Shown in pieces: positions 21,901-24,900 of a stretch of DNA of 64,000 nucleotides. Every line of letters starts with the position of its first letter. The first letter of the stretch is position 1. The stretch lies in NCBI RefSeq assembly GCF_988243305.1, contig NZ_OZ547136.1. One strand, given 5' to 3'. Made by a program: the position numbers.

Positions 21901-24900
21901 GCGTCTCCCTGCGCGGGATTTTTTTGTCCATAAGAAAGCCCCTCCGGAGAGGGGCTGGAGAGTGGCGCTATGTGCCATTGCATGGTGCCGGGTGCCTCCC
22001 GGTGAATTCAGTACCAGCACCTGAATCCGCGATTATCCCATATACCTACTCGCTGATTGCCCCTCCGCACAGGGGGATTCACCATGCCAGTTTCTTTTAA
22101 CAAACTCCCCGCAAAACAGACAACTGTCAACCGTCTGAATTGTGAGACATTTAAAAAAAAGGCCCGCAAAAGCGAGCCAGGGAAAATAAGTGTGGCGCGT
22201 TGTACTGGATTCGAACCAGTGACCGATTGCTTAGAAGGCAATTGCTCTGTCCGGCTGAGCTAACAACGCAGGGTACAGATAATGGACCGCCATCGAGGAC
22301 TCGAACCCCGCGCAACCAGCTTCGAAGGCTGGCGCTCTATCCTGATGAGCTAATGGCGGTATGTGATGGTGGCCCTTGCTGGATTTGAACCAGCGACCTG
22401 GCGATTATGAGTCGCTCTCACCACTGAGCTAAAGGGCCGGGAGCCGCATAATAACGACGCGTAATTAATTCTTCAATATCATCCGTTCTGGCTGACTAAA
22501 TCCTGTACTTCCCGAACCGTCTGCTCAAAACATTCAGTCTCCAGCTCAACGCCAATTGCACGACGCCCGAGCGCCAGTGCTGCTTTGACGCTACGGACAT
22601 AAAAAAGCCAGCCACTGGGGGAGGCTGGCGAAACTCGTAGAGCAAAAGTGTTGTTACACTAACTTCGTCACAGGGTTATCCTGCAATACTCAAAATACAC
22701 AATATTTACAAAACTAATAGTATACAAGGCGATCTTTAAGATTTTGTTATAAATTATTGCCTTTCTCCTCTTTCCATGAGCTTTCTGGGTAGCCACAGAA
22801 TTCCGGGTACAGAAAAACCCGCTCAGCGGCGGGTTTAAGCTGTGTGACGAAGTAACCACTCTTAACAGCATAACCAATTTTTTACGTACGTAAACCACTA
22901 AATGATATTTGCGAGAATGCTACCGAGTATTGAAAACACCACTACAAATACATAAGCAAATCTCAACAAATAACCAACAAATAATTTCCAGTGTTATTTT
23001 TAGCCGGTTTAAATTGAACCTTCAAATTATAGAGCACTTATAAATAACAGCCGTTAATATAAATTGGCTAATAGATTTATTTTTATTCAGCCAAGAGCCA
23101 TGAATAGGATTCGATAGAAAAAAGTTCAGATAAAAATAGAGATCTACTTCACAAATCAAACGAGAAACCAAAACTAACATCTTGAAATAATCACATTGAT
23201 TAGATGAATATTTATCGCGCAGTGACATCATTTTTTAATAATAGTTCAAAAAAAGGGCTCACGATGAAAAAATTAACAGTGGCAATTTCTGCTGTAGCTG
23301 CATCAGTACTGATGGCGATGTCTGCTCAGGCAGCTGAAATTTATAATAAAGACAGTAACAAGCTGGATCTGTACGGGAAAGTTAATGCTAAGCACTATTT
23401 CTCCTCTAATGATGCAGATGATGGTGATACTACTTATGCCCGTCTTGGCTTCAAAGGTGAAACCCAAATCAACGATCAACTGACTGGTTTCGGTCAGTGG
23501 GAATATGAATTCAAAGGCAACCGCGCTGAATCTCAAGGTTCCTCCAAAGATAAAACCCGTCTTGCCTTCGCTGGCCTGAAATTCGGTGACTACGGCTCAA
23601 TCGATTACGGCCGTAACTACGGTGTAGCATACGACATCGGTGCGTGGACTGACGTTCTGCCAGAATTCGGTGGCGATACCTGGACCCAAACAGATGTGTT
23701 CATGACTGGTCGCACCACTGGTGTTGCAACTTATCGTAACAACGACTTCTTTGGTCTGGTTGATGGTCTGAACTTTGCTGCTCAGTATCAGGGTAAAAAT
23801 GACCGCACTGACGTAACTGAAGCTAATGGTGATGGTTTCGGTTTCTCCACTACTTATGAGTATGAAGGATTCGGTGTAGGTGCAACCTATGCTAAATCTG
23901 ACCGCACTAATAATCAGGTTATCTACGGTAACAACAGCCTGAATGCATCTGGTCAAAATGCTGAAGTATGGGCAGCTGGTCTGAAATATGATGCGAACAA
24001 CATCTATCTGGCTACCACCTATTCTGAAACCCAGAACATGACTGTTTTTGGTAATAACCATATTGCCAACAAAGCACAAAACTTCGAAGTAGTTGCACAA
24101 TATCAGTTCGACTTCGGTCTGCGTCCGTCCGTTGCTTACCTGCAATCTAAAGGAAAAGACTTGGGTGCGTGGGGTGATCAGGACCTGGTTGAATATATTG
24201 ATGTAGGTGCAACCTATTACTTCAACAAAAATATGTCCACTTTTGTTGATTACAAAATCAACCTGATTGATAAGAGCGATTTCACGAAAGCATCTGGCGT
24301 TGCTACCGATGATATCGTTGCTGTAGGTATGGTTTACCAGTTCTAATTTGATTACTAAAAGATATGTTGCGGGAGGCTTTGCCTCCCCAACATATAAGTG
24401 GCTCCCTCAAGCCACTTCCTTTAGGAGCACAACCTTGCTTCTAACTATATAAACCTTCTGTTATATATTACCCTTTATTTTTGGGGGCGTTGCAACGCCC
24501 CATTTTTAATAATTTTTAGTAAACAATTGGCATATTAATTAGAGTTATTAACAACGATATCCATCTCTAACCGGATATCTAATGCCATTAACATCCCTTC
24601 AATTATGCCCTCAGCCTTCTGTAACCTTTTCCCGATATAACCATCAGAGCAGCAATGCTTACCTGCCAGTGACATGAATGTCATACCGACTACATAATAA
24701 TCTACTAATAAATCGTGCAAATCGCTGTTGTTCTTTTTCAGACGGGCCATGCACCCGCAAATAATCATCGCGTCATCGTCACAACATTGCGGGCGAGATT
24801 TTACTTTTGAAGTAATTAATCCCTTAAAACCGGCGGCAATGGACGACCAGGTCACATCTTCATGATTATTAGCCGCCCACGCTCCCCAGCGTTCGAGAAC

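Follow-up and report, generated by a model that had tools for sequence, protein, structure and literature searches.

Transfer RNA (tRNA) genes of the ileZ type are known from Shiga toxin (Stx) phages, 933W, VT2-Sakai and Stx2a_WGPS8 among them, and from non-Stx lambdoid prophages; in the Stx2a_WGPS8 reference the cluster is annotated ileZ-argN-argO and lies upstream of stx2A, and the names ileZ, argN and argO rest on database annotations. These genes encode a tRNA of the tRNA-Ile2 type with a CAU anticodon. Normally, TilS of the host modifies the CAU of tRNA-Ile2 to lysidine-AU, and it is in this form that the tRNA reads the rare isoleucine codon AUA. Chromosomal ileX and ileY have in common with ileZ the CAU anticodon, the anticodon loop CUCAUAA and the pairs C4:G69 and C5:G68, together with a nearly identical T arm; in ileX, the anticodon stem has five pairs beginning at G27-U43 (six pairs as drawn by ARAGORN), whereas ileZ has A27-C43 at this place. 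The subject of the present analysis is a short ileZ gene in a stretch of 64,000 nucleotides (nt) from contig NZ_OZ547136.1 (NCBI RefSeq assembly GCF_988243305.1), hereafter the window. Judged by its alignment, this gene is a 4-nt deletion allele of phage ileZ, and probably a dead or crippled one. ileZ itself is already known, and its deletion allele represents no new kind of system.

Identity of the 72-nt gene

An earlier note on this DNA had described a phage tRNA-Ile(CAU)-like gene of 72 nt at positions 22367-22438 of the window, and ARAGORN does call a tRNA(CAT) of that length at exactly this place, on the minus strand and with its anticodon at position 30. The tRNA model of Rfam (RF00005) matches the short ileZ over 22370-22438 with 58.2 bits (E = 5.5e-10); given a gathering score of 29, the call of the 72-nt gene is far beyond chance. 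The features of the gene are as follows.

22367..22438, minus strand: ileZ with a 4-base deletion, tRNA-Ile2-type, anticodon CAU, encoded 3' CCA included (ARAGORN; Rfam; alignment)
22407..22409, minus strand: anticodon CAU, at tRNA positions 30-32 (usually 34-36) (ARAGORN)
22401..22415, minus strand: anticodon arm GCGA / CUCAUAA / UCGC, the same as in full-length ileZ (ARAGORN structures of the 72- and 76-nt genes compared)
22414..22417, minus strand: the sole surviving GAGC unit, which is the deletion site; full-length ileZ has GAGCGAGC (alignments)

The assignment of the gene to the ileZ type, likewise proposed in the earlier note, is carried by the alignment. The 72-nt gene is identical at 72 of 72 positions to the ileZ of Stx2a_WGPS8, PhiR49_2 and E. 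coli SLK172, with a single 4-nt gap at GAGCGAGC, and all 72 bases outside the gap are shared with the ileZ genes of the Stx phages and non-Stx lambdoid prophages named above. What reads GAGCGAGCGACU in these relatives reads GAGCGACU in the window copy, and this is its sole difference from the 76-nt phage ileZ. The lost bases correspond to one GAGC of a two-unit tandem repeat (GAGCGAGC reduced to GAGC), the breakpoint being ambiguous inside the repeat, at about 22413-22418. Identity to all 284 matching phage records, the ileZ of 933W among them, is 94.7% (72/76). At one GAGC unit less, the gene falls short of the full 76-nt length of ileZ, and relative to ileX the same 4-nt deletion comes in addition to the differences that ileZ shows already.

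The neighbourhood of the gene is also that of the phage ileZ clusters, with argN (UCG), argO (UCU), a terminator and the small RNA (sRNA) STnc100. Unlike the Stx phages, the window prophage has no stx genes, and an esterase gene and lysis genes follow the cluster. The window sequence is identical, in reverse orientation, to that of E. coli O111:H21 strain 15A (NZ_CP077477.1), where the RefSeq annotation gives the 72-nt gene as tRNA-Ile without comment.

Geometry of the shortened RNA

In full-length ileZ, the acceptor strand GGCCCUU is followed by UA at positions 8-9, by a D arm GCUC-AGUGGUGA-GAGC, by G as nucleotide 26 and by an anticodon arm AGCGA-CUCAUAA-UCGCC. The GAGCGAGC repeat thus runs from the D stem (positions 22-25) across nucleotide 26 into the anticodon stem (positions 27-29), and with one GAGC unit lost both stems have to draw on the same G-C bases. 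Only 18 nt separate A9 from the anticodon loop, as compared with 22 in wild-type ileZ, and a standard cloverleaf requires at least 21 (4 + 7 + 4 + 1 + 5); no standard cloverleaf therefore fits the 72-nt gene. A D stem, nucleotide 26 and a five-position anticodon stem are not jointly present in it, and, unlike in the ileZ of Stx phages, a full D arm and the anticodon stem are not possible together. The lesion is in this sense a cloverleaf-disrupting one, as would be expected of a tRNA pseudogene.

The earlier note had located the defect elsewhere, in a shortened anticodon arm. The 4-base-pair (bp) anticodon stem GCGA/UCGC that it had folded by hand does appear in the ARAGORN drawing, but as a defect it does not hold up, for the arm is base for base the same in the canonical 76-nt ileZ, which ARAGORN draws with the same 4-bp stem and with A27 and C43 unpaired. 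At both lengths the arm consists of A-C, G-C, C-G, G-C and A-U plus the loop CUCAUAA, and in the 72-nt gene GAGCGA still precedes the anticodon loop, such that the wild-type anticodon arm can form, though at the expense of the G-C required by the D stem. A 4-bp anticodon stem closed by an A-C mismatch, found in phage ileZ and the window copy alike, is the norm of the ileZ family and no sign of decay. Because the stem is drawn identically for the 76-nt gene, it offers no explanation of the short length, and a shortened anticodon arm was rejected as the cause of the 72 nt; what the deletion takes away is part of the D arm and of the junction.

How the RNA might accommodate the missing bases depends on which helix is given priority. 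The Infernal fold keeps the D arm and leaves 2 bp of the anticodon stem, with four model positions deleted and three broken anticodon-stem pairs; the resulting Rfam score of 58.2 bits is 14.3 bits lower than the 72.5 bits of three full-length copies. The ARAGORN fold keeps the anticodon stem, and its D arm pairs only C11-G20 and C13-G18 around a 4-nt loop. A third fold, found by eye, has a shifted 3-bp D stem (C11-G22, U12-A21 and C13-G20) with a 6-nt loop, G10 unpaired and nucleotide 26 absent. A high-scoring canonical fold under some other alignment, the outcome that the earlier note had named as fatal to its view, did not emerge: the Infernal version, as the alternative alignment, scores worse than the full-length genes, the base count leaves no room for a canonical fold, and this candidate was rejected.

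The ViennaRNA energies of these structures are indicative only and have little weight, the minimum-energy fold of the wild type not being a cloverleaf either:

-29.0 kcal/mol: wild-type cloverleaf, 76 nt
-27.5 kcal/mol: D arm kept, 4-bp stem and an 11-nt loop swallowing the anticodon, 72 nt
-25.6 kcal/mol: shifted 3-bp D stem, 72 nt, the best cloverleaf with a 7-nt anticodon loop
-23.7 kcal/mol: Infernal version, 72 nt
-20.9 kcal/mol: ARAGORN version, 72 nt

Our reading, to which we give a probability of about 0.75, is that the 72-nt ileZ is a null or severe hypomorph allele, the loss of function being predicted from this geometry. One GAGC unit would have been lost by replication slippage or by deletion between the two short direct repeats, upon which the RNA would have to sacrifice the anticodon stem or the D stem, or else make use of the shifted 3-bp D stem. 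The D/anticodon helical stack would then be shortened or distorted, and the tRNA would be handled poorly or not at all by TilS, IleRS and the ribosome. Anticodon-stem substitutions impair E. coli TilS, an enzyme with domains that extend to the anticodon stem, to the elbow and to the acceptor stem (PMC11947777); on this account, a distorted L-shape should matter. The loss, for its part, would be tolerated owing to the ileX-type tRNA of the host, to further ileZ-like copies in several carrier genomes and to a modest use of AUA. Of the two options left side by side in the earlier note, a divergent functional tRNA or a decaying copy, it is the latter that appears the better one, with the former less favored.

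Frequency, origins and rival readings

The deletion allele is rare. Among 5,426 complete E. coli genomes, the exact 72-nt allele occurs in 7 records, as compared with 2,775 records in which the exact 76-nt ileZ is the best copy and 287 with a 95-99% identical copy. Deposited phage records contain the deletion allele in no case and other ileZ forms in 284, and among IMG/VR viral contigs the deletion junction is found in 7 and the wild-type junction in at least 120. In four E. coli records, the deleted copy is the nearest to the 76-nt gene of all the ileZ-like copies that they have; the strain 15A chromosome has three more ileZ-like places, and TUM13773 shows a single such place.

Counting of GAGC units by regular expression in 131 ileZ matches (138 loci) gave two units in 116, one in 15 and three in none, the 15 one-unit matches coming from 14 distinct loci, of which that of the window was retrieved twice. 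A three-unit allele is likewise absent from E. coli records at a match of at least 99%. The idea of a repeat-expansion allele, which would have spoken for two-way slippage or for a switch, was dropped, there being no three-unit copy in E. coli or in the 131 matches.

When the flanks of ileZ are compared across all the loci, over 60 nt on the upstream side and 260 nt on the downstream side, the 14 deletion loci sort into four flank combinations.

Group A: strain 15A (the window), B1-56 and four IMG/VR contigs; the same upstream sequence as PhiR49_2
Group B: SCU-105, SW070912, TUM13773 and one contig; upstream differs from A, downstream nearly as in A
Group D: two IMG/VR contigs; the upstream sequence of B but for 1 difference in 1,423 nt, diverging five bases past ileZ
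Group C: 2013C-4830 and 2012C-4227; set apart from A, B and D on both sides, by 21-26 differences upstream and 10-56 downstream

For groups A, B and D, a single deletion event would suffice, if recombination to the left and right of an invariant tRNA gene then passed it on. Group C, which differs from the window's group at 21 upstream and 10 downstream positions, has flanks equal to those of the full-length loci L079 and L113, with 0 differences over the 60 + 260 nt, and the 4-nt gap is its sole difference from L079 between -174 and +455. Because these flanks match full-length loci exactly on both sides, the comparison suggests at least two independent losses of GAGC, by slippage or by deletion between short direct repeats, a short double recombination in place of the second deletion being possible for group C. 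The GAGCGAGC of ileZ would on this evidence be an apparent small deletion hotspot, and maybe a minor marker for the typing of lambdoid prophages.

In the mosaicism of the prophages, the invariant ileZ also seems to serve as a junction for recombination. Two deletion-bearing loci, L007 and L014 (the latter an IMG/VR contig), are nearly identical over about 1.4 kb upstream and through ileZ, and then diverge abruptly five bases on.

Several observations weigh against a null or severely hypomorphic ileZ. The loss of function is one that we infer from geometry, and the acceptor stem, T arm, anticodon arm, D-loop G-G, U8, A14 and CCA end are all intact; the cloverleaf-like fold with the shifted 3-bp D stem is, by ViennaRNA, thermodynamically reasonable. 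The further decay that a pseudogene might be expected to accumulate is also missing, with zero additional substitutions in the 72 nt across the 14 deletion loci, a test of low power given that 2,775 of 3,067 ileZ-bearing records have the exact canonical sequence. The allele has moreover lasted long enough to gain different flanks by recombination, and it is carried by otherwise complete-looking prophages, that of the window included. Such persistence without decay on recombined flanks lends slight support to retained function.

The rival reading that these points favor is that of a functional, if divergent, phage tRNA, in which the shifted 3-bp D stem (CUC/GAG) with its 6-nt D loop sits on an unchanged anticodon arm, and which is modified, charged and reads AUA. 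The TilS identity pairs of the acceptor stem are present along with the other intact elements; the shifted-D-stem cloverleaf, at -25.6 kcal/mol, lies just 3.4 kcal/mol above the wild-type one; ARAGORN, Rfam (58.2 bits against a required 29) and RefSeq all call the gene a tRNA; and the undecayed allele persists in 14 assemblies on recombined flanks. Set against this are the 18 nt where at least 21 are needed, without nucleotide 26 or the G10-C25 pair and with a D/anticodon stack about two layers shorter; a competing non-tRNA fold that is more stable than any fold keeping the 7-nt anticodon loop; the lack of any compensating change alongside the deletion; and the rarity of the allele, which about 0.2% of the genome records with ileZ and 0 of 284 deposited phages contain. 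On balance, we consider a working tRNA unlikely.

An analogy would be with the reduced-D-arm tRNAs of metazoan mitochondria, which similarly combine normal acceptor, T and anticodon arms with an undersized D region. Those tRNAs have co-evolved synthetases and factors, and their anticodon-to-acceptor distance is kept. By contrast, the loss in the window gene would be a recent and uncompensated one of 4 nt, in a bacterial-type tRNA, and it is rare in the population. The proposition that the 72-nt ileZ may work with a minimal D arm and no nucleotide 26, GAGCGAGC being a recurrent generator of such a form, strikes us as doubtful; if it were true, the TilS, IleRS, EF-Tu and ribosome of E. coli would tolerate a D/anticodon stack about two layers short.

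An elongator tRNA-Met instead of a tRNA-Ile is far less probable. ARAGORN labels the gene tRNA-Met(cat) and several phage records annotate tRNA-Met, but the genuine chromosomal ileX receives the same ARAGORN label, as does any tRNA with CAU. Full-length ileZ is identical to ileX at 68 of 76 positions and to elongator tRNA-Met at only 54 of 78. Both reference sequences have matches of 100% identity in more than 5,000 E. coli genomes each; those of ileX are annotated tRNA-Ile, those of the elongator tRNA-Met. The acceptor stem GGCCCUU/AAGGGCC contains C4:G69 and C5:G68, the major E. coli TilS identity pairs that tell tRNA-Ile2 from tRNA-Met (PMC11947777), and RefSeq and curated phage records say tRNA-Ile or ileZ. 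A tRNA-Met identity was rejected on the similarity to ileX together with these identity pairs.

An error of sequencing or assembly, in a strain whose ileZ is truly 76 nt long, might be entertained for a deletion inside a short repeat in a window from a single assembly, but with the same 72 nt in 7 IMG/VR contigs and in 7 complete E. coli genomes that different laboratories in different countries produced, 14 independent assemblies with four flank combinations, and with the loss of four bases in a non-homopolymer repeat being an atypical read error, this reading is scarcely credible and was rejected.

The tRNA cluster and its prophage

The synteny ileZ-argN-argO is kept in the window, downstream of the antiterminator Q and ahead of the lysis genes. 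The remainder of the cluster is as follows.

22283..22359, minus strand: argN, tRNA-Arg(UCG), 77 nt, intact (ARAGORN; Rfam 56.0 bits, as compared with 43.4-56.2 in full-length clusters)
22193..22269, minus strand: argO, tRNA-Arg(UCU), 77 nt, intact (ARAGORN; Rfam 70.1 bits, equal to the reference clusters)
22448..22476, minus strand: sigma-70-like promoter match (9/12 matches), TTGAAG and TATTAT with 17 nt between them, its end 9 nt ahead of ileZ
22151..22178, minus strand: terminator-like hairpin GGCTCGC/GCGGGCC followed by T8, just 3' of argO (conserved in the alignment; putative function)

The promoter match is weak when taken alone, the count of such matches in the region being no higher than in shuffles. 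The TTATTAT at 22448-22454 on the minus strand (alignment columns 45-51) is invariant in 7 of 7 aligned loci, and it is kept even in the 2013C-4830 group, the upstream DNA of which is otherwise unrelated; this conservation suggests that the tRNA cluster may have a -10 promoter element of its own. From these consensus matches we infer that ileZ, argN and argO would form a self-contained transcription unit.

Codon use per 1000 codons was compared between 54 prophage genes and 20 flanking host genes:

AUA: prophage 6.0, host flank 3.3 (about 1.8 times)
AGA: prophage 7.0, host flank 1.5
AGG: prophage 4.7, host flank 0.6

The arginine tRNAs meet a much larger prophage demand than does ileZ. Genes of the ileX type are present in 5,423 of the 5,426 E. 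coli genomes, at a median of two places per genome, and because the host has this tRNA and the demand for AUA is low, being without ileZ should come at little cost, in keeping with a rare and tolerated lesion. The cluster most likely still supplies its two arginine tRNAs, for AGA/AGG and for codons of the CGA/CGG type (five to eight times host-neighbor use). The prophage is probably without its own AUA-reading tRNA, which the host can replace with little consequence. As for annotation, RefSeq and ARAGORN both give the short ileZ as an ordinary tRNA, leaving the lesion unflagged.

The prophage around the cluster is lambdoid and largely complete. It is integrated beside yecN and a DUF72 gene, and it contains genes for an integrase, an excisionase, a LexA-family (CI-like) repressor, replication, the antiterminator QuuD, lysis, terminase, head and tail, together with an IS903B copy and a few pseudogenes. 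The IS903B transposase gene, at window positions 35742-36710 in the early-left region, adjoins small open reading frames that are truncated and frameshifted.

Between quuD and the tRNA genes there is a porin gene of the ompC/nmpC type (23264-24346, plus strand), which replaces most of the DNA methyltransferase gene that is usual before ileZ and leaves a 114-nt remnant of it at 22479-22592; strain B1-56 has the same arrangement of porin and methylase remnant. At the edge of the remnant, some 170 nt ahead of ileZ, a hairpin was noticed by eye at about 22600-22630 on the minus strand: GCCAGCC-N9-GGCTGGC with a run of six T after it. Its loop places it outside the hairpin scan, for which the loop limit was 8.

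On the other side of the cluster, the STnc100 sRNA (21926-22116, minus strand; 139 bits) stands directly 3' of the terminator. PhiR49_2 and SLK172 likewise have this sRNA after the cluster, and Stx2a_WGPS8 has it after stx2B.

Farther into the prophage, at 30835-31023 on the minus strand, Rfam matches to C4 antisense RNA (78.8 bits) and to isrK (58.7 bits) adjoin each other, with a gene for a Rha-family regulator on either side, a region that looks like a P1/P7-style c4/antirepressor immunity module in a lambdoid prophage. Two further RNA matches are ordinary E. coli features: the MicL sRNA (362 bits; 47600-47907), inside cutC, and the C0465 RNA (100 bits; 61166-61243), in the chromosomal flank beside che/flh genes.

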